A stretch of 64,000 nt of DNA from Myxococcales bacterium (GTDB taxonomy: Bacteria; Myxococcota_A; Polyangia; Polyangiales; DASUME01): positions 1,600,001 through 1,664,000 of the forward strand of contig JASGJH010000001.1 in assembly GCA_047601445.1 (NCBI GenBank), written 5' to 3'. The notes under the pieces were generated by a model. That model was given only the letters and a program-made list of their open reading frames with translations. It was not told the origin of the DNA and did no database searches. Every line of letters begins with the position of its first letter. The first letter of the stretch is position 1. Positions 35,872-56,744 of this stretch are shown piece after piece. Made by a program: the position numbers and the translations under genes.

Positions 35872-36273
35872 CTACATGCACCTGCCGTTGGTACACGAGG
35901 TGTGACCGCAACCGAAAAAGCTGCAGTCCTTCACGTAATCACTGCAGGTCCGTGCGCACATGCCGCCATCAGAGCCCGCGTCCTTGTCGCCCCCGGCATC
36001 CTTATCGCCGTCGCCGTCGCCATCGCCCGCGTCGAGATCGCGACCGGCGTCTCCGTCGCCATCCCCGTCTCCGTCGCCATCCCCGTCTCCGTCGCCATCC
36101 CCGTCGCCGTCTCCATCCCCGTCGCCGTCACCATCTCCATCGCCGTCACCACCGGCGTCGTTGACGTACTTCGGTGCGGGCGCCGGGTCGTCGCCGCAGG
36201 CGATGATCAGCAGGCCAACGAAGAGCGCGACCAGGCCGCGCCGGAGGATTCGCGAAGACAGGGAGAAGCTCAT
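35872..36273 (-). CDS. Small lipoprotein with a (Gly-Asp)17 linker and a Cys-rich tip
   Basis: LIIAC lipobox; GD run; six Cys in the C-terminal ~30 aa. Confidence 0.7.
   Translation of the reverse strand: MSFSLSSRILRRGLVALFVGLLIIACGDDPAPAPKYVNDAGGDGDGDGDGDGDGDGDGDGDGDGDGDGDGDGDGDAGRDLDAGDGDGDGDKDAGGDKDAGSDGGMCARTCSDYVKDCSFFGCGHTSCTNGRCM
36049..36150. repeat. Coding hexamer tandem repeat (17 units)
   Basis: RTCNCC x17, including three perfect GTCTCCGTCGCCATCCCC units at 36049-36102. Confidence 0.85.
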
Positions 36274-36350: not shown

Positions 36351-36804
36351 TCACGCGCCGTCGGCGCTCCCCGTCATTCGCAGCGCCAGCTCTTCCATAT
36401 CGAGCAGCGTCAGCGGCCCATCGTCCGTCAATACCGGCTCGCCCGGCGTGAGGGCTGCGCGGAATGCCACACTGCCCACCGAGCGCGTGCTCTCCGCCGG
36501 GACGCCCAACAACCCAAGACTCGACTTGCACACCACCAACCTGCGCGTTGCGGTGGCGGCATGCAGTGGGCGCGCGACCGCGACGAGTCGTCCGCGGTCT
36601 TGAACCACCCCGAGCACCTCGCCGGCCGTTTCCGGGATCTCCGTTGGGTTCCGTCCAGGGCACGATTGAATCGACGGCGGTCGGCGCGATGCCGAGCAGG
36701 ATGGGTCCCTGCGTCAGCACCAGCAGTTCTCGTTCGCCATGCGCCGCATCCACCGCACCGACTTGCTCCGCCAGCTCGGCGAACGCAGAAAGCTCGTCAC
36801 TCAC
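36351..36804 (-). CDS. CheW-like coupling protein (frameshift near 36645)
   Basis: Removing one base gives ELLVL...LLGIAPTAVDSIVPWTEPTEIPETAGEVLGVVQDRGRLVAV...LTLLDMEEL, a CheW pattern. Confidence 0.7.
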
Positions 36805-37113: not shown

Positions 37114-38150
37114 ATGAAGAAGGTCACGAGCGCTCTCTAATGCTTGGGTTGGTAGGTTCGGCTTGCGGTGGCGATGACGGTGACAAAACCGTGCGCGAGA
37201 ACACCGGCAAGCTCCGCGTTGGCTTCGTCAATTTCCAGGAAATCAGCGTTTGGCGCGACGAGGAGAACCGCAGCGTGCAGGCCGAGGCCGAGAAGCGCGG
37301 CTACGAGCTCGTGTATCGCAACTCCGTCGACGAGTCGCGCCAGGCGGACGACATCGAGGAGCTGGCCGCGATGGGCCTCGACGGCATCTTCCTCGCTCCG
37401 AAGGTCGTGTCGCTCGCTTCCTCCGTCGTGAGTGCGAGCAAGGCCGGCGTGCCGATCATCCTGCTCGACCGCGGCGTGGACGAAAGCGTGGCCAAGCCCG
37501 GACAGGACTACCTGACACTCATGTCCTCTGACTTTGCGCTCGAAGGTAAGATGGTCGCCGAGTGGGTCAACGACCACTTGGGCGAGTTCGAGGCCAAGTG
37601 GGGCGCGATGCCGGCGGGTGGCTGGCCCGCGCTCGAGCTCGAGGGCAGCATGGGTGCGGACCCGGCCATCAAGCGCAAGCAAGGCTTCGACGCCGAGATT
37701 GCCGCCAACGGTGGCGGCAAGGTCAATATCGTCGCCTCGATCACGGCGAACTTCGACGACGCCAAGGCCAAGGAAGTCACCACCGCCCAGCTGGCCGCTC
37801 ACCCGGACCTCAAGATCATCTACACGCACAACGACGGCATGGCGATGGGCGCCATCAGCGCCATCGAAGCCGCCGGCCTCAAGCCGTCCGACTTCATGAT
37901 CGTCTCCATCGACGGCGCCAAGATGGCCACCCAGGCGATCTTCGACGGCAAGATGAACCTGACGGTGACCTGTAACCCGAGCTTCGGCCCCTCGGCCTTC
38001 GACAAGCTCGAGGCGTTCCTGGCCGGTCAGAGCCTGCCCACGCACATCGTCACCAGCGACGTCGCCTGTGACCTCGCCGCGGTGATGCAGGCGTTCGGGA
38101 ACACCGACGACGCCCACGAGCCCTGCGACGGCTTCGGGTCCGCCAACTGA
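37114..38150 (+). CDS. Sugar-type periplasmic binding lipoprotein (RbsB/YtfQ-like; frameshift near 37135 in the signal peptide)
   Basis: MKKVTSAL(L)MLGLVGSAC; GVPIILLDR, HNDGMAMGA, IVSIDG. Confidence 0.85.
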
Positions 38151-38224: not shown

Positions 38225-39472
38225 ATGCGCAATTTCTCTGTGACGATCCTCCGCTCTAGCCTGCTCCTGTGTTTGTTGCATGGCTGCTCGGACCCCGCCC
38301 CTGCCGATACGGTCTCGTTCGGTCTGGCGTTGCCCTTTACGGGCGCGAGCGCCCAGCGCGGCGTGAACATCGAGCGGGCCATGATCACCGCTGGCGACGA
38401 GATCAATCGCGCCGGAGGTGTGCTCGGACGTGAGGTGCATTTCCGTGCCGTGGACACGCACTCCACCACGTACGAGGGGATGCGTGCAGCGACTCCGCTG
38501 TTTTCGGACGGCGACGCCGTGGCGGTGCTCGGGCCCGACAGCAATGACCTCGCCCTGAGTCTGGCCCCGGTTGCCCACAGCTCGGACAAGCTCCTGGTGA
38601 CGCCCAGCGCGACGCCGCGCAGCGTGGCCGTGTCCAAAGACGAGCGCGACCACTGGCTTCGCCTCAACCCATCGGTGTCCCTGCTGGCCGACAAGCTCGC
38701 CGAGCAGATCATCGCCGACGACCGCAGGCACGTGCTCATCGTACACGTGGTGGATTCGCTGATGGTGGCGTTGAAGGATCAGATCACCAGCCGGCTGGTC
38801 CGCGACACGCAGACGCGCGTGCCGGCCGCCGTGGCGATCACGCCCGATCGTTTTCCCGACAATACCGCGGTGATCGAGGCGCTTGCGCATGCCGGAGACA
38901 CCTACGACGCCGTCGTCGTCCTGGCCTATCCCAACCGCGCCGCGAGCATCGTGAACGACGTGGTGCTCTCCTATGCACCCGCGCGCCGCAAGGCCATCGG
39001 CTGGTACTTCTCGCATACCGTGCGGAGCCCCGAGTTCCTCGAGCACGTGCTGACCGAGTACATCGAGGGTGGCACCGGCGTGGCCTTGGCCGTCGGCCAG
39101 GATGCCGCGGCATTCCGTGAGCTCTTCCGCGAGCGCTGGTTCGGCGATGAGCCCACCGAGGAGGCCTACTACTACGTCGACGCGCTCAACCTGCTCGCGC
39201 TGGCCACGGAGGCGACGGGCGCCGACGACCCCAGCGAGGTCGCGGCCGCCACGCTGAGCGACAACATCCGCAAGCTCGCGCAGGCGGGCGGGCAAGAAGT
39301 GCGCTGGAACCAGCTCGACGCGGGCCTCGAGGCGGTGCGCGCGGGCAAGCCGGTTACCTATCTCGGACTCACTGGAAATCTGCAGCTGATGGGAGGCGAG
39401 CTTCAGCGTGAAGTGGTCGACGCATCGTTGTGGCGAATCGAAGGAGGGAAGTATGCGTCCTTCACGCGCTAA
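38225..39472 (+). CDS. Branched-chain amino-acid-type periplasmic binding lipoprotein
   Basis: LHGC lipobox; LPFTG, INRAGGVLGR, VLGPDS, YLGLTG. Confidence 0.85.
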   Translation: MRNFSVTILRSSLLLCLLHGCSDPAPADTVSFGLALPFTGASAQRGVNIERAMITAGDEINRAGGVLGREVHFRAVDTHSTTYEGMRAATPLFSDGDAVAVLGPDSNDLALSLAPVAHSSDKLLVTPSATPRSVAVSKDERDHWLRLNPSVSLLADKLAEQIIADDRRHVLIVHVVDSLMVALKDQITSRLVRDTQTRVPAAVAITPDRFPDNTAVIEALAHAGDTYDAVVVLAYPNRAASIVNDVVLSYAPARRKAIGWYFSHTVRSPEFLEHVLTEYIEGGTGVALAVGQDAAAFRELFRERWFGDEPTEEAYYYVDALNLLALATEATGADDPSEVAAATLSDNIRKLAQAGGQEVRWNQLDAGLEAVRAGKPVTYLGLTGNLQLMGGELQREVVDASLWRIEGGKYASFTR

Positions 39473-41867
39473 GTCGGTGCGCTCTCGAAGTCTTCTTCTG
39501 TTGGCCGGCTCCTTGGCCATGTGTGCGAGCGCGGTGCACGCACAAGACGCGGCCTTGCCGCCGTCCGAGCCAGCCACGTTGCCTCAGGCTCCCGTCGAGC
39601 CGCCTGCGCAGGTCCCCGAGCAAGTCGGTGAGACTGCCCCCGTGGCAGCACCCGAGCCTGTCCTTGTCGATGCGACAGCCGGTCAGCCGGCGCCCGAGCA
39701 GCCCGCGGCAGCGGCCCCAGCGGCACCGCCAGCCGACGAGGCTGGTTCCGAGGCACCCGTAGAGCCAGCGTCCGAGGACGCGGTGCCAGCAGACGGATCG
39801 ACCGACGAAGCGGAGCTCGCGGAGCTGAGCCTCGAGCAGCTCCTCAGCCTGGAGATCGTCTCCGCCACCAAGGACAAGCAGCGTCTCGAAGAAGCCCCCG
39901 CCATCATGACCGTCCTCACGCAGGACGACATGCGCAAGTGGGGCTATCGCACGGTGGTCGACGCGCTCAAGCACGTGCCCGGCTTCTATGTGGTCGACGA
40001 CGGCACCATCCCCAACGTCTCCACGCGCGGCATGGGCGGAAGCCTGCATGCCGAGAGCGGTGGCATCAAGGTCTTGATCAACGGCACCGCTGCCACCTAT
40101 CGCAGCACGGGTGGCCAGTGGCTCGACTCGGCCAACCTGCCGGTGGCTGCCATCGAGCGCATCGAGATCATCCGGGGACCGGCCTCAGCGCTCTACGGCG
40201 CCGACGCGTTCCTGGGCGTCGTCAACATCGTGACGCGGCAGTCCTTCAGCAGCACCGATGTCGGCGAGCTCACCGTGGGTGGCCGGCACCGCTTCGCGAC
40301 GGACAACAACGGTGGTGACGGCTCGTTCGCGGTAGGCCGGAACGAGGAGCGCTATCGCTTCATGTTCTCCGGCAACTACGACCGCGACGACCGCTCCGGC
40401 CTCAAGCTGCCTTCGAGTTCCCCGGCTCCCAACACCGGCGAGCGCGACGCGCACAGCCTGCGCTCACAACAGCATCAGGACTCCGCCTCGTTCTACGGGC
40501 GCGGTGAGTACAACGCGTCCGACACCGTCAAGCTCAGCCTGGCCGGCTACTACGCTCAGCTGCGGCGCGACGACGAGTTCTCGTACCTGACCCAGTTCGC
40601 CAACATCACCGACGAGAATGGGCGCCCTTCTCGCAACCAAATCGCGCGGCAAAACGCCTTCGTGACCGCGCGCGCCGACTGGGCCGCCACCGACAAGGTG
40701 AACCTGTCCCTGGACAGCACGTTCTTCGAGGGCCAGCCCCTCAAGGGCGACCGCACCGAAAACGGCGACGAGTTCTACTACTACCAGAAGCGCCATCGTT
40801 CGCGTGGCAACCAGACCAGGCTCGAGGGACAGTGGAAGCTCGAGCGCGTGTCGCTCACCGTGGGCGCGGAGTCCATCTACGACATGGAGCTGCTGCCGCA
40901 GGTCACCGTGCGCTCGAAGGTGCCCGCCGGCACCATCGAGCCCGGCGAGACCGTCGCCTCCCACACGCAGGGCGAAAAGGCCTTCGTGAACTTGGCCGCC
41001 TTCAGCCAGGCGCAGTGGAAGGTGTGGGACCAGTACCTGACCCTGACCGGTGGTGCACGTTACGACCACCACAACATCTACGGTGGCCAACCGAGCGGCC
41101 GCATCGGCGCCGTCTCGTCGCCGGTCGAGAGGCTCTCGATCAAGGCCCTGTATGGCACCGCTTTCCGGGCACCGACGCCGGAGCTCCTGTACGCCATCCC
41201 TGCGGCTCCCGGTGACATCAGCGGTAACCGCGGCCTCGCTCCGCAGCGCGTGCACACCATCGAGGGAGAGGTCTCGTACCGCTTTACCCCGAACTTGATG
41301 GCCACGACCGGCCTCGCCTACAACATCCTGCAGCACGGCGCCGAGTTCGTTCAGGTCGGAGCGTTCAAGGAAGCGTTGAACCTCACCAGCTTGAACAGCC
41401 TCTCCTGGGAATCGTCCGTACGCCTACGTTACCCGGACAACATCGAGGCCTACGCGAGCTACGAGCTCAACCACACCGAGCGTGACGTGGGCGGCTCGAG
41501 CTACCAGTCATCGCTAATCGGCAAGGACGGCGTCATCTATCCGCGCATGCAGCTCCACACGGGCGTGAACAAGGCGTTCCCGAGCCTCTACTTCCGGGTC
41601 TTCGGTGAGTTCACCTTGATCGGCAAGCGTCGGGCCAGCGTGGACAACATTCTCGAGAAGGGCGCGTCCTACTACCTGAGCCAGTACTACTTGTTCGACT
41701 GCGGCGTGAGTACGATGAAGCTGCAGGCCCTCGAGGGTCGCGACACCGATATCTCGCTCTTCGTTCGCAACGCGTTCGGCGCCAACTCGCCCGACCCAGG
41801 CTTCGGCGGCGTCGACTATCCCCGCCTGCCGCTCACTGTTTTCCTCCAACTTCGTCAGAAGATCTGA
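39453..41867 (+). CDS. TonB-dependent receptor (YfiR-associated type) with a long acidic Pro/Ala N-terminal linker
   Basis: Signal peptide; LSLEQLLSLEIVSATK...EAPA plug; IERIEIIRGPASALYGADA.GVVNIVT; YGTAFRAPT. Confidence 0.92.
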   Translation: MRPSRAKSVRSRSLLLLAGSLAMCASAVHAQDAALPPSEPATLPQAPVEPPAQVPEQVGETAPVAAPEPVLVDATAGQPAPEQPAAAAPAAPPADEAGSEAPVEPASEDAVPADGSTDEAELAELSLEQLLSLEIVSATKDKQRLEEAPAIMTVLTQDDMRKWGYRTVVDALKHVPGFYVVDDGTIPNVSTRGMGGSLHAESGGIKVLINGTAATYRSTGGQWLDSANLPVAAIERIEIIRGPASALYGADAFLGVVNIVTRQSFSSTDVGELTVGGRHRFATDNNGGDGSFAVGRNEERYRFMFSGNYDRDDRSGLKLPSSSPAPNTGERDAHSLRSQQHQDSASFYGRGEYNASDTVKLSLAGYYAQLRRDDEFSYLTQFANITDENGRPSRNQIARQNAFVTARADWAATDKVNLSLDSTFFEGQPLKGDRTENGDEFYYYQKRHRSRGNQTRLEGQWKLERVSLTVGAESIYDMELLPQVTVRSKVPAGTIEPGETVASHTQGEKAFVNLAAFSQAQWKVWDQYLTLTGGARYDHHNIYGGQPSGRIGAVSSPVERLSIKALYGTAFRAPTPELLYAIPAAPGDISGNRGLAPQRVHTIEGEVSYRFTPNLMATTGLAYNILQHGAEFVQVGAFKEALNLTSLNSLSWESSVRLRYPDNIEAYASYELNHTERDVGGSSYQSSLIGKDGVIYPRMQLHTGVNKAFPSLYFRVFGEFTLIGKRRASVDNILEKGASYYLSQYYLFDCGVSTMKLQALEGRDTDISLFVRNAFGANSPDPGFGGVDYPRLPLTVFLQLRQKI

Positions 41868-41901
41868 GCACTCGCACCTGGTGGCGTCCAAAGCCGCACC
41901 C

Positions 41902-42270
41902 ATGAACATCCTCATCATCGACGACAGCGAGCTCTCCCTGCAGGCCATGGAGACGACCCTGAAGGCCCATGGCCACCGGGTGGTCTGCACGTCGTCCCCC
42001 ATTGGGGCCACGCGTCTCATCCTCAACGAGAAGATCGACGTGGTGGTGGTGGACGTGAATCTGCCCAGTATGCGCGGAGACAGCCTGGCTGCTCTGTTCC
42101 GTAAGCAGCCGCGCATGCAGCACGTCGGTGTCGTCTTGGTCTCGGGCGTCGAGCCGGAGGAGCTCAAGCGACTCACCGACGAGAGCAAGGCCGACGCCAT
42201 GTGCAACAAGCAGGACGTGCGCGAAGGACTCCATCCAGCCGTGATGACGGCTCGCCGAGCCCGCAAATGA
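41902..42270 (+). CDS. Single-domain response regulator
   Basis: ILIIDDS, VVDVNLP (phospho-acceptor Asp), LVSG, K. Confidence 0.88.
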   Translation: MNILIIDDSELSLQAMETTLKAHGHRVVCTSSPIGATRLILNEKIDVVVVDVNLPSMRGDSLAALFRKQPRMQHVGVVLVSGVEPEELKRLTDESKADAMCNKQDVREGLHPAVMTARRARK

Positions 42271-42620
42271 CTCAAGTGTTGACCTTCATCCATCGCAGCG
42301 TTCGGGCTGCCATCCCGGCCCAACAAGCCGACGGCCTGGCCGCCAGTGACGCAGGACTCGAGCGCATCGCGTTGTGGCGCGGCGGCTCCGAGGTCATCGA
42401 GCGTTGGTTGCGCCTGCGCGCTGCGCGCGGTCATTTCGGCCTGAGCTGCAGCGAAGTCGAGCTACTCGAGGTTCCCTCGCGCGAGCTCATTCCCATCAGC
42501 GGCGTACTGGCCGCAGCGCTCAAACTCCCGCACGTCGTGGGCTTCGCCACGATCGCACACAAGCCGACCTGGTTGGTCGACGTAACCCGCCTCACGGCCA
42601 ACAACGCACGGGTAGAATAG
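42267..42620 (+). CDS. Degenerate CheW-like protein
   Basis: ATGA overlap; AAIPA...LIPIS...VVGFA...PTWLVDV; position within a che cluster. Confidence 0.45.
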   Translation: MTQVLTFIHRSVRAAIPAQQADGLAASDAGLERIALWRGGSEVIERWLRLRAARGHFGLSCSEVELLEVPSRELIPISGVLAAALKLPHVVGFATIAHKPTWLVDVTRLTANNARVE

Positions 42621-42623
42621 GTT

Positions 42624-43211
42624 ATGGGTACTCGCGTCCGGGTCGCTATGGAGAAGCGCCCTCGAGTCCAATGGAGCCGCACCGCGCGAGCGTGCCTGCT
42701 GCTTACATGCCTGGCGCTGCCGTGCATCGCACTGGCTCAGCAGGTCCCCGCCGCCATTCGGGCTGCGATTCTGCTCCGTTCGTTGTCCTACGAAAAGGGC
42801 TTCGCTGCCGGCACCGGCCCCGCCACGGTGCTGGTTCTGAGCGGCTCCAACGGGACCAGCGACGGCAACGAGACGGCCGCCTCCATGAAGAAGCTGGCGA
42901 CCAGCGGCGGCTCCACCCGTCAGCTGCGCGTGGAGACCTCGAGCTCCGACGCGAGTGCGGCCGAGGCGAAGCGGACCAAGGCCCAGGTGGTGTATGTCGC
43001 CAGCGGCAACGAGCGGGCCCTGTCGGAGCTCTCCGAGCTCCATCACATCATCGTGCTGTGCGGCGATCCCGCGGGCATCGGCAAAGGCTGCGTGCTGAGC
43101 GTCGAAGTCTCCGGGACGAGCTCGCGGCTCGTCATCGACTTGGCCCGCGCGACCAAGCTGGGATTGCAGCTCGACGCGCGCATTCTCCGCCTCGCGCGCG
43201 TGGTCCGCTGA
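42624..43211 (+). CDS. YfiR-family (DUF4154) periplasmic protein
   Basis: Signal peptide; AAILLRSLSY; C-terminal LVIDLARATKLGLQLDARILRLARVVR is the YfiR signature. Confidence 0.8.
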   Translation: MGTRVRVAMEKRPRVQWSRTARACLLLTCLALPCIALAQQVPAAIRAAILLRSLSYEKGFAAGTGPATVLVLSGSNGTSDGNETAASMKKLATSGGSTRQLRVETSSSDASAAEAKRTKAQVVYVASGNERALSELSELHHIIVLCGDPAGIGKGCVLSVEVSGTSSRLVIDLARATKLGLQLDARILRLARVVR

Positions 43212-43233
43212 GCCGCTGGCTCGACGAGGAATC

Positions 43234-44754
43234 ATGGGTACGTTCATCTCGATTCGATTCAAGATCGCCGCGTTGATCGCCTTGCTGGGCTTCGCGTTGG
43301 CAGGTTTGGGAGCCGCCGCACTGCCGCGCTACGCGGCGAGCGCCGAGCGCGAAGGTCTGGAGCAACGCGCCGCGGGCGCCGCGGCCATGCTCGCAGGAGC
43401 CGTCTCGCCGGCCCTGGAGTTCGACCAACCCGATACGGCGCGCGAGATCCTGGAGGTGGCCCGCGAGGATCGCCTGGTGCGCTGGGTGGCTGCCTACTCG
43501 GATAGCGGCAAGCTCGCGGTGGCCGTGGGACGCGGCGCACTCGATCGCGTCGAAAAGGTCGACTCCGCGCGCCTGCTGAGCGGAGACAATGCCAGCATCG
43601 TGACGCTCGCCCCCTCGCGCTCCCAGGGCAAGGTGGTGGGCGCTGTCGTGGTGGCCCTCGACTCCCGCGGCATCGGCCTGCGTGAAGAGCAGACCCGACG
43701 CGCGATCCTGCTGCAGGCCACCGTGCTCAGCGCGGTGTTCGTGCTGCTCTCCATCTGGTTGTCCGGCCGCATGACCCGCGTACTCGGTAAGATTGCCGCG
43801 GCGGCGGAGCGCATCGCGCGCGGAGACGTGACCGAGGACTTCGCGCTCGAGCATCCGAACGACGAGCTGGGCAAGATGGCCCACGAGTTCGTCCGGATGG
43901 CGCACCGGCTGCGCGAGCTGCAGCAGAACGCGGCCCGCGTGGCGGCGGGCGACCTCGACGTGAGACAAACGGGCGACGGCGAGCTCTACGTCTCGTTCCG
44001 CACCATGGTGAACAACCTGCGCACCCTGGCGGCCCGCATCGGTGCGAGCTCCGACGCGGTGGCCCAAGCCGCCGCCGCGCTGTTCTCCGCCACGCGTGAG
44101 CACGAGGCCTCGGCAACGCAGCAGACGGCCTCGGTGGAGGAGATGCGGCGCACGCTCGAGTCGTTGGCGTCTTCGGCCGAGCGCGTCAATGCCGACGCCG
44201 GTCAGGTGCGCGACATGGCCGAGCGCAGCTTGCACAGCTCGCAGCAGACCGCCGACCAGACCAAGCTCGTGAGCACCCACTCGGACCGCATCGGCGAGAT
44301 CCTCACCTTGATCCAGGACATCGCGGACAAGTCGGATCTGCTCGCGCTCAACGCGGCCCTCGAGGGCACCAAGGCGGGCGAAATCGGGCGCGGTTTCTCG
44401 CTGGTGGCCGCCGAGATGCGGCGTCTCTCCGAGCACGTGGTCGACTCGGTGCGCGACATCCGCAAGCTGGTCGCGGACATGCGCACGGCGTCCCACGCAT
44501 CGGTGCTGGCCACCGAGGAGAGCATCAAGCTCGCCAAGGAGGCCGCCACCTCGGCGGGCAAGATCACGAGCGCCGTGGGACAACAGCGGGAGGGCACCTC
44601 GCAGGTCAAGGGCGCAGCCGAGGAGATCGTGCGCGTGGTCAACACGTCGCTCGATGGCACGGCCCAGATCACGCGCTCGGCCGAGTCATTGCTGCAGCTT
44701 TCGCACGAGCTCAAGGACGCAGCGAAGGCCTTCCGGCTCAACGCGGCGGCGTGA
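43234..44754 (+). CDS. Methyl-accepting chemotaxis protein with a CHASE8/YfiN-like periplasmic domain and two HAMP domains
   Basis: Two TM helices; periplasmic SPALEFDQPDTAREIL...VAAYSDSG; two HAMPs; tip IADKSDLLALNAALEGTKAGEIGRGFSLVA. Confidence 0.9.
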   Translation: MGTFISIRFKIAALIALLGFALAGLGAAALPRYAASAEREGLEQRAAGAAAMLAGAVSPALEFDQPDTAREILEVAREDRLVRWVAAYSDSGKLAVAVGRGALDRVEKVDSARLLSGDNASIVTLAPSRSQGKVVGAVVVALDSRGIGLREEQTRRAILLQATVLSAVFVLLSIWLSGRMTRVLGKIAAAAERIARGDVTEDFALEHPNDELGKMAHEFVRMAHRLRELQQNAARVAAGDLDVRQTGDGELYVSFRTMVNNLRTLAARIGASSDAVAQAAAALFSATREHEASATQQTASVEEMRRTLESLASSAERVNADAGQVRDMAERSLHSSQQTADQTKLVSTHSDRIGEILTLIQDIADKSDLLALNAALEGTKAGEIGRGFSLVAAEMRRLSEHVVDSVRDIRKLVADMRTASHASVLATEESIKLAKEAATSAGKITSAVGQQREGTSQVKGAAEEIVRVVNTSLDGTAQITRSAESLLQLSHELKDAAKAFRLNAAA

Positions 44755-44757
44755 AGC

Positions 44758-46891
44758 GTGCCCAGCCTCGACGAGCTCGTCCGCACCTTCCTGCGCGGGC
44801 TGCCGGACCGCATCGTCACGGCCACCGACCTGTGGCTGGACTTCGAAGAAGGCCGGCGCCCGGAATCTGACGGCGCTCAAGCGCGTCCTCCACACCGTGA
44901 AGGGCGAAGCCCACATGCTGGGGCTGTCGGCCACGGGCGGGCTCCTACAAGAGCTCGAAGGGCTGGTGGTCAAGGCGCAAGCGGCGGGTGTCGCAGGCCG
45001 CTCCGCGGGGTCGTCGGTGCTCGAAGCACTCGATGCACTGTCGGTGCTGTCGGGGACCCCCGAGCAAGGAGAGGCGACGTTCGACCTCGGACCGGTGCTA
45101 GACAGCCTACGCCATTCGGCCGCGGCGCTCGTCGTGGCCCCTTCGCAGGCCCCCGTCGCGCACCCCGAGGCTGACGCAGGAGCTTCGCCGCCGGATGGCG
45201 TCCAGGGAGCCGCCCGCCACGACGATGACAGCGACGACAGACGCTCGGTGAATCAGGTGCGGGTCGATGAGATTCAGCCCACCATTCACGATCTGCGACG
45301 CCTCTTCGAAGAGCAAGCGCAGACCCAACGACGTCTGCGCGAGGTACAGCGGATCCTGCGTGCGGTGGTGGCCGAGATTGATCCCGCGCTGCCCCCTGCC
45401 GTGCTCGGCGAGCGTGTGATCAAGACCCTGGGTGCCACGGCCGACCTCGAGCGTCGCTTGTCGGCCATCCGCAGCGAGTGGTCCGCCAACGCTTTCGCGA
45501 CCGGCCTCGCGCTCGACCATCTCTCCGACACCACGCGCCGCGCCGCAGTGGTGAGCGTGGCGCGCCTGCGCACGAGCTTGGAGCGCACCCTCCGTAGCAC
45601 CAGCAAGTCGCTCAAGAAGGAAGTCCAGATGCGCGTCGAGGGCGACGCGTACATCGACGCCGTGATCGCCCAGCGCCTCGAGCCCGCGCTGCTGCACGCC
45701 GTCCGCAATTCCGTGGATCACGGCATCGAAGAGCCGGCGGAGCGGATCGCCCGGGGCAAAGCCGCGAGCGGCATGATCGAGGTGCGCATCTCCCAGCTGG
45801 TCTCCATGGTCCAGGTCATCGTTCAGGACGATGGACGTGGGGTCGACGTGCGTGCCTTGCGCCGGCGCCTCCAGGCCGCAGAGGACCTGAGCGATACCCA
45901 GGTGCTCCACATGCTTTTTCGAAGTGGCGTATCGACACGGGATCAAGTGAGCGACATCTCGGGCCGAGGCGTCGGACTCGACGTGGTCGCGCGCGAGGTG
46001 GCCGCGGTGGGTGGATCGGCCCAAATCGAGACCACGCCAGGCCTTGGATTTCGGCTCATCCTCACGCTTCCCTCGGTGCTCCGCGCCGACCTCGTGGTGC
46101 CGATCGGAATCGGCGACAAGCGGCTGGCCCTGCCCTGTCGCAGCGTCGAGGGCTTCTCGCGCATCGCGCGCATCGAGGACACGACGCGCGGCCTGTACGC
46201 GCGCGTGCGCTCGGGGGACCAGGACGTGTCGTTGCCGGTGTACAGCCTCGCCAGCGTGTTCGGCCATAGCGCCGCTCCCAGCTCGGGTGCCCGGGGTGTT
46301 TTGGTCGTACACGAAGGCTTTCGGTTCGTCCTGGTGGTGGACCAGCATGAGAACCCGCGTACGCTGCCCTTTCAGCCCATCTCGGAGCTCGCCGTGCGCT
46401 CACGCGTGGTGCGCGCCGTGGCCCCCAGCCCCGAAGGCGTACGCCTCCTGCTCGACGTGGGCGCCCTGGTGCGCGCGCTGCAGGGCTCGACCCTCAAGGT
46501 CAGCACCGAGCAATCGCGCGGCACGGCGCGCGTCGTCGTGGTGGAGGACGCACCGGTCGCGCGCGAGCTCCTGTGCGGCATCTTGCGTTCGTTCGGGCTC
46601 GAGGTGTTCGAGGCAGCGCACGGGCGCGAGGGGCTGGCCGTGATCCGGGAGCGGGCGCCGAACCTCGTACTCAGTGACGTCGAGATGCCCTTCCTGAGCG
46701 GGCTCGACATGGTGAGTACGCTTCGGCAGGAGGCGCGCTTCGCCGATCTGCGCGTGATCTTCCTGACCACCGACACCAGCGAAGTCACGCGCCGCAGAGC
46801 CGGCGCCCTGGGTGCCGTGGGCTTTCTCTCCAAGCAACGCTTCGTTGAGGACGAGCTCAGGAGGTTGGTCGACTCGTGCCTGGCACTCTGA
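44758..46891 (+). CDS. cheA: Hybrid CheA-REC kinase (frameshift near 44853)
   Basis: Hpt LHTVKGEA, HAVRNSVDHGIE, DDGRG, GRGVGLDVV, CheW domain, C-terminal REC (SDVEMP). Confidence 0.9.
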
Positions 46892-47841
46892 TCTCGGCCC
46901 CAGTGCGCGTGGTGATCGCGGACGACTCCGCCATCGCTGTCTCGCGCCTGGCTCAGCTCCTATCCGAGGAGGCCGGCATCGTAGTGGTGGGAACCGCAAA
47001 CAGCGCCGACGAACTCGAGGCGCTGGTCGACAAGCTCAAGCCCGACGCGGTGACCCTGGATATCCTGATGCCGGAGCGTCCCGGCTTGTCTGCCATCCGC
47101 GGGCTCTCGACGCGCACGCAAGTGGTGGTCGTGAGCGACATCGAATCCGGCTCGGCCCTGGCGGGGGAGGCGCTCGCGCAAGGAGCTGCGCTGTTCGTGT
47201 CCAAGCGCGAGCTCGGCAGCCCCGCAGGAGCAGCGCGGCTGGTGAGGGCGCTGCTACAGCACGCGCAGGCGCCCCGGCCGCTGCAGCTGGTGGCGATCGC
47301 AGGTTCCACCGGAGCCATGCCGGCCCTCGAGCAGATCATCCCGGACCTGGCAGATTGTCCGGCCGCCTTCGTCATCGTCCAGCACCTCCCTGCTGCGCGC
47401 ATGCCCGCATTCGCCGAGTGGATCTGCGAGCTCGGACTGCCGAGTGAAACGCTGCCGGGCGCGCGTGCGCTGCGTCCCGGTATGGCCTGGGTCGCCCCTG
47501 GTGACCGACACCTGCGAGTGGTGGGCTCCCATGCGACCCTCGACGATGGTGAGCCCGTGATGGGACACAAGCCTTCGGCCACCGTCATGGTGTCCTCGCT
47601 CGTGCGCCTGGCCGCGCGCACCACGCTCATCATCCTCTCCGGCATGGGCAGCGACGGCGCCTCCGCCGTGCCTGCATTCGTAGCGGCCGGAGGCAAGCTC
47701 GTGGTGCAGCAGCCCAGCACCTGTGCAGTCCCCGGAATGCCCGAGGCAGCATTGGCGGCCAGCCCACGCTGCCACGAGCTCGGGCCTCGGGAGATCGGTC
47801 GCTTCGTCACCGGCAGCCTGAGCGCGCGCCGCCATGTCTAA
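46876..47841 (+). CDS. cheB: Chemotaxis methylesterase
   Basis: REC (TLDILMP); catalytic GSTG, VQH and GMGSDG. Confidence 0.92.
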   Translation: MPGTLISAPVRVVIADDSAIAVSRLAQLLSEEAGIVVVGTANSADELEALVDKLKPDAVTLDILMPERPGLSAIRGLSTRTQVVVVSDIESGSALAGEALAQGAALFVSKRELGSPAGAARLVRALLQHAQAPRPLQLVAIAGSTGAMPALEQIIPDLADCPAAFVIVQHLPAARMPAFAEWICELGLPSETLPGARALRPGMAWVAPGDRHLRVVGSHATLDDGEPVMGHKPSATVMVSSLVRLAARTTLIILSGMGSDGASAVPAFVAAGGKLVVQQPSTCAVPGMPEAALAASPRCHELGPREIGRFVTGSLSARRHV

Positions 47842-48937
47842 GTCGCTCGACCAACTCCTGACTGGCTTGCTCCACGAGCGCCTCGGACACATGGGACCAT
47901 GGCCGGCCCACGTGCGGCGCTTCGTGAGGGAGCGCGCCGAGGCTGCCCGCCTGTCGGAGCTCGAATGGCTCGAGCGTGTGAGAGGTCGACCCGACGAACT
48001 GTCGGCCCTCGTGGACGCGGCCACGGTGAACCACACGTCGTTCTACCGGCATCGCGAGCACTTCACACAGCTCGCGGCCAGCTTGCCGCGCCTACTGACG
48101 CGCAGAGCTCCGCTCCGCGTTTGGTCGGCGGGTTGCTCGACCGGCGAGGAGACCTGGAGCATCGCCCTCACCCTAGCGGCCCACGGCGCACCGTTCCACC
48201 TGCTCGCCACGGATGCCTGCTCCCGCGCAGTCAGCGTGGCTCGGCGCGGGCACTATGCGGCCGCCCTGACCCACGGCCTGCCGGGGCACGACGGCGGGCT
48301 GGCGTTCACCGCGCCGGCCGACTTGCGCAAGCACGTGCGCTTCGAGGTCGGCACGCTGCTCGACGAGCTGCCGTCCGGGATTCGCGGCCCCTTCGACATC
48401 ATCTTCTGCCGCAACGTGCTGATTTACGTGTCGCCAGAGTATCTCCGGCGCGCCTGGGGCCGCTTCGTCTCGTTGCTTTCGCCCTGGGGCGTGATGGCGG
48501 TCGCTCCCGTGGAGTCCTTGCACGGGGTCCCCACGTCGCTGCGACGCCGGGGTCCGCTCGGCTGGCTCGAACCGTCGGAGACCGCGGCCCCCTCGCAAGC
48601 TCCTGCGGAACCTCGCCCACGCGCAGTGGCCGCTCCTGTCAGACCCGCCGAGCTGCCGAACGACGCGGAGGCGGCCGATCCCTCACTCGCCACGGTCGAA
48701 CACTACCTGTCGACCGGCGACCTGGGAGCCGCCGAAGATGCACTCCACGAGTTGCTCGCGCGCAACGACGACGGAGTCGCGTGGTTCCTGCTCGGAGAGG
48801 TGTGCGCCAAGCGCGGCGCGACGGCGCAGGCGAAGGTCGCTTTTAATCGTGCCAGCACGGCAACCTGGACCTCGGGCAGCAATGACCTGGAGACCATCCG
48901 TGCAGCCGCCAAGCGTCGGGCTCGACAGTGTGGTTGA
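47834..48937 (+). CDS. cheR: Chemotaxis methyltransferase with a C-terminal TPR
   Basis: TSFYR, VWSAGCSTGEE, IFCRNVLIY; TPR AWFLLGEVCAKRG. Confidence 0.92.
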   Translation: MSKSLDQLLTGLLHERLGHMGPWPAHVRRFVRERAEAARLSELEWLERVRGRPDELSALVDAATVNHTSFYRHREHFTQLAASLPRLLTRRAPLRVWSAGCSTGEETWSIALTLAAHGAPFHLLATDACSRAVSVARRGHYAAALTHGLPGHDGGLAFTAPADLRKHVRFEVGTLLDELPSGIRGPFDIIFCRNVLIYVSPEYLRRAWGRFVSLLSPWGVMAVAPVESLHGVPTSLRRRGPLGWLEPSETAAPSQAPAEPRPRAVAAPVRPAELPNDAEAADPSLATVEHYLSTGDLGAAEDALHELLARNDDGVAWFLLGEVCAKRGATAQAKVAFNRASTATWTSGSNDLETIRAAAKRRARQCG

Positions 48938-49043: not shown

Positions 49044-49976
49044 ATGCTCCCGCGCATGCGCAGCCCGAGCCTACTTCTCGCCTTGTCGCTAGGAGCCGCC
49101 TGCAACGCTGGCTCGGATCCAGGCCACCTGGATGCAGGCCTCGCCCCAGACGATGCGGGCATGCAGGCACAAATGGACGCGGCGACGCACGCGGACGCCA
49201 GCGATCACGAGCGCGATGCTTCGCAGCCAGGCAAGCATGGCGACGCCGGCACCGACGCCGCGGTCGACCTGGCTCTGCCTCCCATCAACGCCGGCTTCGA
49301 CTACCAGTTGGGCGGCGGCTATCCACCGCCCAGTGGCGTGGGCATCGTGTCGCGGGATCGCACGGACGAGCCCGCCAAGGGACTCTTCAACGTCTGCTAT
49401 GTCAACGGTTTTCAGGTCCAGCCAGGCGAGGAGCAACGCTGGGCACAGGACCTCATCCTGCGTGACGCAGCCGGCAACGCCATCATCGATCCGGACTGGA
49501 ACGAAGCCCTGCTCGACGTGAGTACGGCGGACAAGCGCACGCGCATCGCGGCCATGCTGAACGGCTTCATGGACGGCTGCGCGAACGCCGGCTTCGATGC
49601 GGTCGAGATCGACAACCTCGACAGCTATGCGCGCTCCAAGGGCAAGCTCACGCAAGCCAACGCGGTGGCACTGATGGCATTGCTCTCCGGGCACGCGCAC
49701 TCGCGCGGCCTCGCCATCGCTCAGAAGAACAGCACCGAGCTGCTCGCGCGCCGCGCCGAGATGGGCACCGACTTCGCCGTGGCCGAGGAGTGCAGCCGCT
49801 ACGATGAGTGCAAAGACTACGTGGATGCCTACGGGTCCCACGTGTTGATGATCGAATACCGGAAAGCCGACTTCGACAAGGGCTGCAAGGCCTACGGCAG
49901 CACGCACTCCATCGTGTTGCGCGACCTCGACCTGGTTCCGAAGGGTCAGGCGGGCTATCTGTTCGACGACTGCTGA
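49044..49976 (+). CDS. GH114 endo-alpha-1,4-polygalactosaminidase-like lipoprotein
   Basis: LGAAC lipobox; FDYQLGG, CYVNGFQ, GFDAVEIDNLD, AQKN, AVAEEC. Confidence 0.85.
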   Translation: MLPRMRSPSLLLALSLGAACNAGSDPGHLDAGLAPDDAGMQAQMDAATHADASDHERDASQPGKHGDAGTDAAVDLALPPINAGFDYQLGGGYPPPSGVGIVSRDRTDEPAKGLFNVCYVNGFQVQPGEEQRWAQDLILRDAAGNAIIDPDWNEALLDVSTADKRTRIAAMLNGFMDGCANAGFDAVEIDNLDSYARSKGKLTQANAVALMALLSGHAHSRGLAIAQKNSTELLARRAEMGTDFAVAEECSRYDECKDYVDAYGSHVLMIEYRKADFDKGCKAYGSTHSIVLRDLDLVPKGQAGYLFDDC

Positions 49977-53773: not shown

Positions 53774-54112
53774 ATGCGTGTTCAGAAGCAGCAGCGCTAC
53801 ACAGATGAGTTCAAGGCAGAGACGATCGCGCTGATGAAGCGAGACGACCGGACTTTCGCGCAATTGGCCGCGGATTTGGGGATAAACAAGTGGACCCTGC
53901 GGGAGTGGTACAACAGGGACCAGATGGCCAAGAAGAGCAAGCGAAAGCCGGGAGCACCTGTAGCTCCGGCTCCCTCTCAGGAGACGGCAGAGGAGAAGGC
54001 TGCGCGGCTGGAGCGTGAGAACGAGCGGCTGCGCAAGAAGGTCGAAACCCTCGAGATGGACCGCGAAATCCTAAAAAAAGCGGCAGCCTTCTTCGCGAAG
54101 GAAAGCGAATGA
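53774..54112 (+). CDS. IS3 transposase OrfA
   Basis: YTDEFK, helix-turn-helix, leucine zipper, ILKKAAAFF. Confidence 0.93.
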   Translation: MRVQKQQRYTDEFKAETIALMKRDDRTFAQLAADLGINKWTLREWYNRDQMAKKSKRKPGAPVAPAPSQETAEEKAARLERENERLRKKVETLEMDREILKKAAAFFAKESE

Positions 54113-54984
54113 GGTTCGCCTTCATCCACGCGGAGAAGGCGAACTTCCCGGTGTCAGCGCTGTGCCGGAACCTGCAGGTGACCCGGCAGGGGTACTACGC
54201 GTTCGCGAGTCGCCCGCCGAGTCCCCGTGCGGACCAGGACCGGGCCCTCTTGGAACGGGTCGGCCAGGTGCACGCGGAGAGCCGCAACGCCTACGGAAGT
54301 CCGCGAGTTCGAAAGGAACTCCGACGTCGTGGCATTCGGGTCGGCAAACGCCGGGTGGAGCGCGCCATGCGGAGCTTGGGGCTCTGCGCCCGGCCTCGTC
54401 GCCGGTTCCGTGTGACCACCGCTGCAAATCCGCGGCATCCAGTCGAGCCTAACGTGCTCAACCGCGAGTTCCGCGCCGAACGTCCCAATCAGCGCTGGGT
54501 GACGGACATCTCGTACGTCTGGACCGACGAGGGCTGGTGCTACCTCGCTGTCATCATCGACCTGTTTTCCAGGACCGTCGTGGGCTGGGCGCTGGACGCC
54601 ATGCTCTCGACCCAGCTGCCCCTCGCAGCGCTGGACATGGCGCTTCGGCGCCGTCGTCCCGACGCAGCAGGCCTGCTCCACCATTCTGACCGGGGCTGCC
54701 AGTACACGAGTCAGGAATACCGCTCTGAGCTCGCCCAGCGTGGGCTCTCGGTCAGCATGAGCCGCAAAGGCAACTGCTGGGATAACGCGGTCGCCGAGAG
54801 CTTCTTTTCAACCATCAAGGCCGAGCTAATTCATGGTCGACGTTGGGCCGGGCGCCTTGAGCTTCGGTCGGCGGTCTTCGAGTACATCGAGGTCTTCTAC
54901 AATCGGCGGAGGCTTCATTCGTCACTGGGGTATCGAACCCCAGCCGAGTTCGAGAAGGACTACACTGCGGCTCAGGCCGCCTAA
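54109..54984 (+). CDS. IS3 transposase OrfB (DDE)
   Basis: WVTDI, HSDRG, CWDNAVAESFF, YNRRRLHSSLGY; in the -1 frame relative to orfA. Confidence 0.95.
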   Translation: MRFAFIHAEKANFPVSALCRNLQVTRQGYYAFASRPPSPRADQDRALLERVGQVHAESRNAYGSPRVRKELRRRGIRVGKRRVERAMRSLGLCARPRRRFRVTTAANPRHPVEPNVLNREFRAERPNQRWVTDISYVWTDEGWCYLAVIIDLFSRTVVGWALDAMLSTQLPLAALDMALRRRRPDAAGLLHHSDRGCQYTSQEYRSELAQRGLSVSMSRKGNCWDNAVAESFFSTIKAELIHGRRWAGRLELRSAVFEYIEVFYNRRRLHSSLGYRTPAEFEKDYTAAQAA

Positions 54985-55533
54985 GCAGGTGTCAACGGAT
55001 TCGAGGGAAGCTCAGGGACGCATGTTCGACAAAGCGCGCACTCTCTTCGCCACGACGCCCCTGCGCCTCCTCGCGCGACCCGAGTTCGCAGGAGCGAACT
55101 CGGGCGGTTGGGAGAGTTGGAGGCGTTCGATTTAGCGAACGCAAAGCAGGGCGCACAGGGCGCGCTGGATGAAATCGGCGGCCGCTTTGCTTGGTGTTTT
55201 TCCCAAGTGAACGGTCGTGAGTACCAGACCATTTGTGGACTCGAGTCCACTCGAGCACAATCCAAGCCCTTTCGAGCGCAACAGCAACCAGCGAACCCGA
55301 TCACCTGACGGAACCCGATCACCTCACGGTCAACGCGCAGCCCCCCACTCTTTGCGTTCGTCGAACCAACGCCCTCACTTCTCCTCAACGTTCCCGGCCC
55401 CAGTTCGCTCCCGCGAACTGGGGTCGCGCGAGGAGGCCCAGGGACGCTATGGCGGAGCGAGCGCTTTGTCGAACATGCGTCCTCACAGGTGCGCTGAAGC
55501 TCCCCCAGTTCCGTTGACACGCAGGAGAAACTG

Positions 55534-55872
55534 ATGCGTGTTCGGAAGCACAACAAGTACACCGATGAGTTCAAGGCAGAGACGATCGCGCTGATGAAGC
55601 GGGACGACCGCAGTTTTGCCCAGTTGTCCGTGGATTTAGGCATCAGCAGCTGGACCTTGCGGGAGTGGTACAACAGAGACGAGATGGCCAAGAAGAGCAA
55701 GCGGAAGCCGGGGGTACCGGTCGCTCCGGTACCTGCTGCTGAAACGGCAGAGGAGAAGGCGGCCCGGCTGGAGCGGGAGAACGAGCGGTTACGCAAGAAG
55801 GTGGAGTCGCTCGAAATGGACCGCGAAATCCTAAAAAAAGCGGCAGCCTTCTTCGCGAAGGAAAGCGAATGA
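55534..55872 (+). CDS. IS3 transposase OrfA
   Basis: Paralog of 53774-54112 (15 of 112 aa differ). Confidence 0.93.
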   Translation: MRVRKHNKYTDEFKAETIALMKRDDRSFAQLSVDLGISSWTLREWYNRDEMAKKSKRKPGVPVAPVPAAETAEEKAARLERENERLRKKVESLEMDREILKKAAAFFAKESE

Positions 55873-56744
55873 GGTTCGCCTTCATCCACGCGGAGAAGGC
55901 GAACTTCCCGGTGTCAGCGCTGTGCCGGAACCTGCAGGTGACCCGGCAGGGGTACTACGCGTTCGCGAGTCGCCCGCCGAGTCCCCGTGCGGACCAGGAC
56001 CGGGCCCTCTTGGAACGGGTCGGCCAGGTGCACGCGGAGAGCCGCAACGCCTACGGAAGTCCGCGAGTTCGAAAGGAACTCCGACGTCGTGGCATTCGGG
56101 TCGGCAAACGCCGGGTGGAGCGCGCCATGCGGAGCTTGGGGCTCTGCGCCCGGCCTCGTCGCCGGTTCCGTGTGACCACCGCTGCAAATCCGCGGCATCC
56201 AGTCGAGCCTAACGTGCTCAACCGCGAGTTCCGCGCCGAACGTCCCAATCAGCGCTGGGTGACGGACATCTCGTACGTCTGGACCGACGAGGGCTGGTGC
56301 TACCTCGCTGTCATCATCGACCTGTTTTCCAGGACCGTCGTGGGCTGGGCTCTGGACGCCATGCTCTCGACCCAGCTGCCCCTCGCAGCGCTGGACATGG
56401 CGCTTCGGCGCCGTCGTCCCGACGCAGCAGGCCTGCTCCACCACTCTGACCGGGGCTGCCAGTACACGAGTCAGGAATACCGCTCATCGCTCGCCCAGCA
56501 CGGGCTCTCGGTCAGCATGAGCCGCAAGGGCAACTGCTGGGATAACGCGGTCGCGGAGAGCTTCTTTTCGACCATCAAGGCCGAGCTAATTCACGGCCGA
56601 CGTTGGGCCGGACGCCTTGAGCTCCGGTCCGCAGTCTTCGAGTACATCGAGGTCTTCTACAATCGGCGGAGGCTACATTCGTCACTGGGGTATCGGACCC
56701 CAGCCGAGTTCGAGAACGATTACACTGCGGCTCAGGCCGCCTAA
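55869..56744 (+). CDS. IS3 transposase OrfB (DDE)
   Basis: Paralog of 54109-54984 (3 of 291 aa differ). Confidence 0.95.
   Translation: MRFAFIHAEKANFPVSALCRNLQVTRQGYYAFASRPPSPRADQDRALLERVGQVHAESRNAYGSPRVRKELRRRGIRVGKRRVERAMRSLGLCARPRRRFRVTTAANPRHPVEPNVLNREFRAERPNQRWVTDISYVWTDEGWCYLAVIIDLFSRTVVGWALDAMLSTQLPLAALDMALRRRRPDAAGLLHHSDRGCQYTSQEYRSSLAQHGLSVSMSRKGNCWDNAVAESFFSTIKAELIHGRRWAGRLELRSAVFEYIEVFYNRRRLHSSLGYRTPAEFENDYTAAQAA

Follow-up and report, generated by a model that had tools for sequence, protein, structure and literature searches.

In YfiBNR signalling (Pseudomonas aeruginosa, and Escherichia coli with DgcN as sensor), a periplasmic protein of the YfiR fold acts with a sensor of transmembrane–CHASE8/PAS–transmembrane–HAMP architecture that has a GGDEF output, and the outer-membrane partner is the Pal/OmpA-type lipoprotein YfiB. 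Here we analyse a 64,000-nucleotide stretch of a Myxococcales bacterium genome (NCBI GenBank assembly GCA_047601445.1, contig JASGJH010000001.1, positions 1,600,001 to 1,664,000 of the forward strand; 'the window') that carries a chemosensory operon encoding a TonB-dependent receptor, a YfiR-like protein and a methyl-accepting chemotaxis protein (MCP) with a CHASE8-like sensor. Judged from its sequence, the locus is a real, conserved variant of the YfiBNR type of signalling, and it yields a docking hypothesis that can be tested. According to the reading towards which the evidence mildly inclines us, one chemoreceptor has a YfiN-type CHASE8-like sensor that would be switched by the YfiR-like protein, and the TonB-dependent receptor would be an optional outer-membrane input.

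Variation in the output of this core has been described. The available parts of Malone 2012 (PMC3375315) report MCP, kinase and GGDEF-EAL outputs on a YfiR-PAS/HAMP core, with an MCP in place of GGDEF in one case, in the genus Polaromonas; TonB goes unmentioned in those parts of its main text and eight supplementary files, and in the available parts of PMC4655355. The single-domain solute-binding protein (SBP) RmSBP of Rhodothermus marinus (PDB 5z6v, 6k1w) is the best profile and Foldseek match of the window's YfiR-like protein; proteins of its family are reported near MCP genes in PMC10805632, the available text of which never names YfiR or TonB. The NCBIfam models NF053590, NF053591 and NF053592, compared here by their names only, describe a receptor (TOL_0244), a YfiR-like protein (TOL_0243) and a histidine kinase, the last being the output; they match the corresponding window genes (E 2.5e-26, 2e-6 and 2e-14), with scores under the curated cut-offs (92.5/645, 27.9/125 and 53.6/194 bits). 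A first-pass annotation, made from the window sequence alone, had regarded a YfiR-gated chemoreceptor as uncharacterised. The literature searched, judged mostly from listings and with subscription journals outside its coverage, contains no characterised YfiR-gated MCP and no link between YfiR and a TonB receptor, but the novelty is tempered by the MCP-output YfiN noted in 2012 and by the receptor-YfiR-kinase trio in NCBIfam.

The locus resembles YfiBNR in its YfiR-fold periplasmic protein, in the architecture of its sensor, which has an aligned YfiR-binding motif, and in encoding an outer-membrane partner upstream. It differs in having an MCP-CheA output instead of GGDEF and in lacking a Pal/OmpA-type YfiB, with no OmpA-family match among the 14 window proteins scanned with Pfam. 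Signalling across the periplasm by a TonB-dependent receptor, via its N-terminus, is known from FecA-FecR-FecI; by contrast, the window receptor has no STN domain (Pfam, NCBIfam), the operon has no anti-sigma or extracytoplasmic-function (ECF) sigma gene, and the proposed relay is soluble YfiR. Wsp is another CheA-REC/CheR-TPR system of non-flagellar architecture. The nearest studied analogue is the Che3 system of Myxococcus xanthus (CrdB, Mcp3A/B, CheA3), which shares with the window related MCP tips and a chemosensory architecture that is likely non-flagellar here; its proposed upstream input, in the available parts of PMC3147164, is the OmpA-domain envelope lipoprotein CrdB. We rejected orthology of the operon to Che3 on CheA ranking and phylogeny: the Che3-type CheA, cut by a contig end, is fourth among the M. 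xanthus matches and falls in a separate clade. The window also lacks the orthologous CheA, CrdA/CrdB and two MCPs that characterise Che3, its locus has no sigma-54 activator, and YfiR was not found in the M. xanthus genome.

The YfiR-like protein, the chemoreceptor sensor and their linkage

Profile and structure comparisons establish that the protein encoded immediately upstream of the MCP, which the first-pass annotation had called YfiR, is a DUF4154 protein with the YfiR fold. It passes the PF13689 cut-off (37.8 vs 24.9 bits), and it is the single DUF4154 match found in the source genome (G000). Its model, built from an 83-row alignment with a predicted local distance difference test score (pLDDT) of 92, matches P. 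aeruginosa YfiR (4zhu) with a VIA Z of 14.3, at 2.8 Å over 138 residues. RmSBP (6k1y; Z 13.4) and one lobe of the two-domain SBPs 3lft and 6hni (Z 14.5 and 14.4) match the model about equally well, and identity to RmSBP is 12-17%. By our count in a profile alignment with E 0.09, the hydrophobic YfiR residues F162, L166, V176, L181 and L183 all align with leucines in the window protein; in the available parts of PMC3375315 and PMC4887326, these residues belong to a surface proposed for YfiN binding and shown to bind YfiB. The cysteines of the mature window protein are C146 and C156 only, a pair invariant in 15 close homologues.

The likening of the MCP periplasmic domain to CHASE8 also stands, most clearly through related sensors. 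The window protein scores under the Pfam cut-off of 27 bits (19.6 bits for the whole MCP, 24.7 bits for the cut domain), CHASE8 is detected at E<=0.01 in 29 of 39 aligned sensors, and the orthologous sensors of loci L023, L025 and L118 exceed the cut-off. The MCP model contains a single PAS/Cache-like domain flanked by two transmembrane stretches. Alignment of the sensor profile with E. coli DgcN (hhalign; P 72%, E 3e-5) places an ALEF motif (MCP residues 60-63) on the DgcN AAVVF motif, which the available parts of PMC3375315 give as the predicted YfiR-binding site of YfiN. Foldseek matches of the whole MCP model are dominated by helical bundles, with weak PAS/Cache matches such as CitA and no YfiN periplasmic structure among the PDB matches. 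Residues Q296/Q297, E302 and Q450/Q451 are conserved candidate methylation residues; a strict methylation-site consensus matches one MCP site only.

The chemosensory output is likely of non-flagellar type. Systems of the alternative-cellular-function (ACF) type, which is Wsp/Che3-like, are defined by clustered genes for an MCP, CheA-REC, two CheW proteins, CheB and CheR-TPR, and this gene set is present at the locus, with cheA and cheW frameshifted. In G000, FliM/FliN searches gave no convincing match, with one marginal FliMN_C match, and TonB_C matches occur. The source genome has a second chemosensory operon, without YfiR (loci L031, G000 C1:4553001-4573000, and L028), in which genes for a porin-like protein (weak Porin_O_P match), a small secreted protein and a lipoprotein precede the MCP gene.

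The linkage of yfiR to the sensor extends across a sample of 80 loci, the best of 454 found with the MCP alignment, annotated with our own hidden Markov models (HMMs). Of the 45 loci with a CHASE8-like MCP sensor, 35 include a yfiR gene, vs 1 of the 35 loci without the sensor, and the MCP at that one locus may have a missed sensor. Among the ten sensor loci without yfiR, five are short contigs, and for one (L119) yfiR is found elsewhere in the genome. A tree was built from 67 CheA kinase regions, leaving out loci whose CheA is partial, broken or missing. On it, the sensor-plus-YfiR label must change 5-6 times and is present in four lineages or more; the window CheA falls in a 30-row clade (support 100/100) of which 28 rows are sensor-plus-YfiR, and its nearest relatives carry the label Myxococcota, in several cases Polyangiales. 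Within the genus, both the YfiR and the MCP orthologue are present in 3 of 10 genomes and neither in 7 (completeness 72-99%). A TonB receptor is present at 23 of the 45 sensor loci, all 23 of which also have yfiR, and at 1 of the 35 non-sensor loci. The window's receptor subfamily is accompanied by a LivJ-type SBP in all cases (11/11 MCP loci; 17/17 distinct receptors). In cultured Sorangium cellulosum So ce26 (L076), the whole unit is co-oriented, in the order lipoprotein, receptor, cheW, REC, cheW-like, yfiR, MCP, cheA, cheB, cheR. We conclude that the co-occurrence of YfiR and sensor is tight and the link to the receptor looser, the receptor being optional. Separately, seven Sorangium copies (L077, L078, L081, L083, L095, L096 and L091) lack cheB/cheR, L091 only cheB; six also lack the CheW-like gene, and from strain to strain the upstream receptor is of another lineage or missing.

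A sample seeded with YfiR gives the converse view. In the phylum sample, 28 of 201 genomes have DUF4154 (46 matches), and 40 of the 45 foreign matches were taken, chosen without regard to receptors. A receptor lies within 4.5 kb at 24 of these 40 yfiR loci, an MCP at 13, a kinase at 18 and no clear output at 9; CHASE8 was found in 4 of 4 MCPs checked with Pfam. Because an MCP is present at 13 and the full receptor-YfiR-MCP trio at 6 of the 40 loci, the MCP version is common, not rare, in this sample. A further output type is seen at L032:2905-5103 and L036:2135-4315, where membrane HAMP-Hpt-HATPase kinases, CheA-like and in one case with CHASE8, stand beside yfiR and a TonB receptor.

The acidic-leucine helix and the TonB-dependent receptor

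Receptors encoded beside yfiR have in common a 12-residue acidic-leucine helix motif, directly before a TonB-box-like strand that we take to be the TonB box. Unlike the operon architecture, this helix pattern is the new element here. A regular-expression version of the motif proved too strict (3 of 10 near yfiR, 2 of 20 far) and was replaced by a position-specific scoring matrix (PSSM) trained on 38 receptors adjoining yfiR. Against this matrix, the scores of unrelated proteins have a 95th percentile of 6.7 and a maximum of 15.6 over 160 residues. Every one of the 23 receptors from yfiR-MCP loci scores 16.5-31.1, including 11 outside the training set (17.3-24.2), nine of which belong to a Sorangium lineage 22-26% identical to the window receptor over short stretches; the single receptor at a yfiR-less locus scores -3.1. 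With a PSSM from which the rows of five genomes had been withheld, 29 of the 30 best receptors of those genomes could be scored (L200 being too short), and the 11 near yfiR, including the one at L178, where yfiR adjoins, outscore the 18 far from it (p 0.006).

The motif is not confined to TonB-dependent receptors. Two unrelated barrels encoded directly upstream of yfiR, one weakly matching PF13557, carry it past the signal peptide. The barrel family has matches in 40 of 401 genomes; in its 30 best loci, the helix is present in all three with yfiR adjacent (ranks 1-3: 16.8, 11.0, 10.2) and in none of 27 without yfiR in about 1.5 kb (top score 6.9). In the PF13557-like barrels of L066, L051 and L256, the helix replaces a His-rich N-terminal segment of many yfiR-less homologues. 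At L110:2156-3523 and L035:6150-7517, 455-aa secreted porin-like proteins encoded upstream of yfiR are helix-less (1.5 and -0.4) and are possibly another type of outer-membrane partner.

The receptor-YfiR pairing itself was examined by complex prediction, with receptor residues 113-804 and mature YfiR both entered as alignments. The complex scores 0.49, a weak pass, vs 0.02 for the best of three controls; the runs have no less than 84% of their contacts in common, partner pLDDT is 83 or higher, and the pass mark is reached by 116 of 157 solved pairs and 2 of 215 mismatched pairs. The prediction thus lends weak support to binding of YfiR by the receptor.

Taken with the helix pattern, these results speak in part for the proposal of the first-pass annotation that a TonB receptor stands in place of YfiB, and the absence of the receptor from a third of yfiR-MCP loci, considered below, speaks against it. 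We suggest, tentatively and as something short of probable, that the helix is a portable YfiR-docking tag that makes unrelated outer-membrane barrels functional stand-ins for YfiB, with TonB-gated exposure titrating YfiR from a chemoreceptor or kinase. Such a tag may span two or more distant lineages of TonB receptor as well as a PF13557-like barrel.

Two loci of the source genome (L029 and L030; G000 C1:3.67-3.69 Mb and 6.75-6.77 Mb) encode helix-bearing receptor paralogues together with HAMP hybrid kinases and orphan SBPs (LivJ-type, SBP_bac_8, phosphonate-SBP-like and ABC_sub_bind-like), with no permease among the called open reading frames (ORFs) and one frame break in each cassette. The genes that follow the two paralogues were considered as degenerate yfiR and rejected, the encoded proteins not being YfiR.

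Proposed mechanism and competing explanations

According to the hypothesis that YfiR acts by partner switching, which is likely the better account of the locus and each step of which is inferred, YfiR would dock on the ALEF helix of the sensor, as YfiR does on the AAVVF motif of YfiN, and would lock the MCP in one signalling state. The receptor and its solute-binding lipoprotein partner or partners would capture a solute; ligand binding or TonB engagement would make the acidic-leucine helix next to the TonB box more or less accessible; and the helix would take up or release YfiR, the role of the YfiB N-terminal segment in Pseudomonas. The MCP would then alter CheA activity via two CheW-type adaptors, CheA would phosphorylate its own REC domain, CheB and the single-domain regulator, and CheB and CheR would provide adaptation where retained.

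Several observations weigh against this hypothesis. Within the YfiR-like protein, YfiR V160 and E163 are not kept, and the YfiR disulfides (C71-C110 and C145-C152) are at positions that do not align with C146 and C156; moreover, YfiR-fold proteins amount, according to the available parts of the literature, to half of a solute-binding protein and bind small molecules weakly. The linkage counts rest on a sensor HMM built from our own orthologues and on samples biased, and counts inflated, by kinship: 14 of the sensor-positive loci are from Sorangium, and 23 of the sensor-negative ones, three of them checked by gene calls, are two-MCP loci of the Che3 type. The first-pass annotation had made conservation of gene order a test of its proposal, and the linkage of YfiR to MCP is conserved, but order and orientation vary among loci, no receptor is present within 12 of the 35 yfiR-MCP loci (9 of them full length), and a window-type receptor was not found with the window query in G021 (85% complete), G031 (54%) or G028. 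Likewise, cheB and cheR provide the operon with the adaptation enzymes of its own that had been claimed for it, but 6 Sorangium loci have neither gene and 1 lacks cheB alone. As to the helix, two of the three helix-bearing barrels are discovery cases, the helix-bearing barrels comprise three families for which a single origin is possible, two of the eight receptors of G000 carry the helix (24.0 and 16.7) beside non-YfiR proteins, and 5 of 6 motif-bearing receptors followed up elsewhere have no yfiR in 7-13 kb, the sixth having it; helix-bearing receptors lacking a yfiR neighbour may act in trans, or the motif may merely mark a subfamily. As to the complex, scores at or below 0.60 comprise 18 of the 157 solved pairs and both passing mismatches, 0.49 lies in a band that the prediction tool rates as more often wrong than right unless the pairing was likely beforehand, and the prediction gave no interface location, so the helix is not identified as the contact. 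Finally, cheA and cheW are broken as assembled; the expected number of core breaks in 12.6 kb is 0.25, and the probability of two or more is 0.026, with four background breaks counted.

The main rival to partner switching, which we consider unlikely, is a ligand relay that involves no receptor-YfiR contact: the receptor and lipoproteins would import a solute, and the YfiR-like protein would bind it and present it to the MCP, much as TorT and LuxP present ligands to their sensors. A relay gains from the match to RmSBP, a single-domain SBP of a family reported near MCP genes, from the equally high scores against two-domain SBPs, from the LivJ-type SBP that always accompanies the receptor subfamily, and from the weak binding of Trp and vitamin B6 by P. 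aeruginosa YfiR that is given in the available parts of the literature. It loses from RmSBP itself, for which no ligand emerged clearly from soaking with metals and amino acids in the available text of PMC10805632, and it explains neither the weak receptor-YfiR complex pass nor why an unrelated barrel has the helix only where yfiR adjoins. It is rather improbable that YfiR and the MCP form a self-contained envelope or redox sensor, with YfiR lost by misfolding, and that the genes for the receptor and lipoproteins make up an uptake module that is linked loosely and takes no part in signalling. The yfiR-MCP loci that have no receptor, the changes of orientation, the differences in receptor lineage between strains and the invariant C146/C156 pair are what such a sensor would leave behind, and YfiNR pairs without YfiB are known from the available parts of PMC3375315; set against this, every receptor at a sensor locus has yfiR and the helix (23/23), even across receptor lineages, and a receptor lies near yfiR at most of the loci chosen without regard to receptors (24/40).

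The frame breaks bear on this strain in particular. The first ~33 codons of cheA (from 44758) are out of frame with the Hpt histidine and the remainder, the break lying upstream of that histidine, yet both pieces are in a single frame in 6 of 6 orthologous loci, and L022 and L023 have intact copies of cheA and cheW. We screened 244 proteins from 23 loci of two same-genus genomes, 173 of which could be tested against G000, and found a frame change in 6 of the 173, cheA included; of the other five, three are clear and one is ambiguous on inspection, and the fifth, not inspected, resembles a miscalled query. Because 6 of the 7 clear breaks are one extra base, among them a break in a regulator that shares 89% identity with its orthologue, the bias suggests systematic assembly error. 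In cheA, in cheW and in the first lipoprotein gene, the breaks are probably assembly errors rather than real lesions. A substantial minority chance attaches to their being real, in which case the operon of this strain would be decaying and the mechanism could still operate in relatives. Decay would account for the breaking of cheA, cheW and the first lipoprotein signal peptide all within 12.6 kb, at a frequency improbable against the genome background, and it would sit with the lack of orthologues in 7 of 10 genomes of the genus and with the partial loss in Sorangium copies. It is countered by the breaks elsewhere in the genome, the clear ones including genes 85-89% identical to their orthologues, by the one-extra-base bias, and by the remaining genes, which show no in-frame stops or large deletions.

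Operon layout, neighbouring genes and significance

The eight genes named by the first-pass annotation are all present on the + strand in the order that it gave, with intergenic distances of 34, -4, 3, 22, 3, -16 and -8 nt, so the description of a tight, co-oriented run is upheld (window ORF coordinates; Table 1). Its domain calls for the TonB receptor, REC, CheW-like, MCP, CheA-REC, CheB and CheR-TPR proteins agree with Pfam, except that the CheW-like call comes from Atlas and the TPR matches are below cut-off. Its 'complete pathway' is accurate as to a clustered gene set but not as to intactness, cheA and the canonical cheW being frameshifted and the latter divergent and upstream. The unit in fact starts upstream of the receptor, with an RbsB-type and then a LivJ-type solute-binding lipoprotein gene, the 3' end of the latter overlapping the receptor start by 20 nt. 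The RbsB-type gene, of a family that also adjoins the receptor in L023 and L088, has a frame break near 37135 that divides its signal peptide, and it has no permease gene beside it. The receptor comprises a signal peptide, a Pro/Ala-rich linker, the helix, the plug and the barrel. In an alignment with three orthologues, the acidic pair, phospho-Asp, Ser and Lys positions of the single-domain REC protein are all filled; the 117-aa CheW-like protein has no Pfam or NCBIfam match, and its gene is conserved across orthologous loci; and orthologues of the canonical cheW match PF01584. A locus scan found no sigma-70-like promoter and no excess of terminators. The source genome is assembled as one 9.5-Mb contig.

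Table 1. Operon features in window coordinates
Feature	Position	Strand	Evidence
Canonical cheW, divergent; +1 frame break near 36646	36804 to 36351	-	CheW HMM matches in two frames; L022 orthologue identity 47%/53% in two frames
RbsB-type (Peripla_BP_4) solute-binding protein, likely lipoprotein	37114..38150	+	PF13407 E 2e-33
LivJ-type (Peripla_BP_6) solute-binding protein, likely lipoprotein	38225..39472	+	PF13458 E 7e-17
TonB-dependent receptor, 804 aa	39453..41867	+	PF07715 (Plug, E 4e-20), PF00593 barrel; NF053590 92.5 bits
Acidic-leucine helix motif, receptor residues 122-133, candidate YfiR docking site (inferred)	39816..39851	+	PSSM and receptor comparisons
Single-domain response regulator, likely output	41902..42270	+	PF00072
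Divergent CheW-like protein (FrzB/CrdC-like), 117 aa	42267..42620	+	Atlas features 0.94; TM 0.75-0.81 to CheW-domain clusters
YfiR-like periplasmic protein with signal peptide	42624..43211	+	PF13689 (DUF4154) 37.8 bits
MCP: TM1, CHASE8-like PAS/Cache sensor, TM2, HAMP, signalling domain	43234..44754	+	HAMP and MCPsignal; NF053592 53.6 bits
CheA-REC (Hpt, HATPase, CheW, REC); +1 break near 44850-44860	44758..46891	+	Pfam domains; orthologue frames
CheB (REC-methylesterase)	46876..47841	+	PF01339 E 7e-38; alignment
CheR with C-terminal TPR-like region	47834..48937	+	PF01739 E 9e-31; TPR matches below cut-off

Three neighbours of the operon were noted. A lipoprotein-like GH114 glycoside hydrolase is encoded at 49044-49976 (+), 106 nt past cheR, and was not found in 7 related loci. 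Just downstream of the divergent cheW, at 35872-36273 (-), lies a small lipoprotein-like ORF that is rich in Cys, contains a long tandem repeat of Gly-Asp and has no Pfam match. The region 53774-55889, read from the ORF list only, contains an IS3-like transposase pair at 53774-54984 (+) and, within about 54981-55889 on the other strand, a similar sequence that is orfA-like.

The YfiR-sensor core is widespread, most of its divergent copies have no YfiB, and their input has been a question since 2012; single-domain SBPs beside MCP genes, exemplified by RmSBP, have structures but no function. The locus ties these two themes together, and it names a 12-residue candidate interface that is cheap to test. 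If the proposed mechanism is correct, TonB receptors would signal to kinases and chemoreceptors with no anti-sigma route, and a chemoreceptor would be gated by protein partner switching. If the helix is a mere subfamily signature, the locus would be an ordinary, already catalogued YfiBNR domain-swap; if it is a portable tag, it would define a general, sigma-factor-free trans-envelope route, read out here by a methylation-adapting Che pathway.

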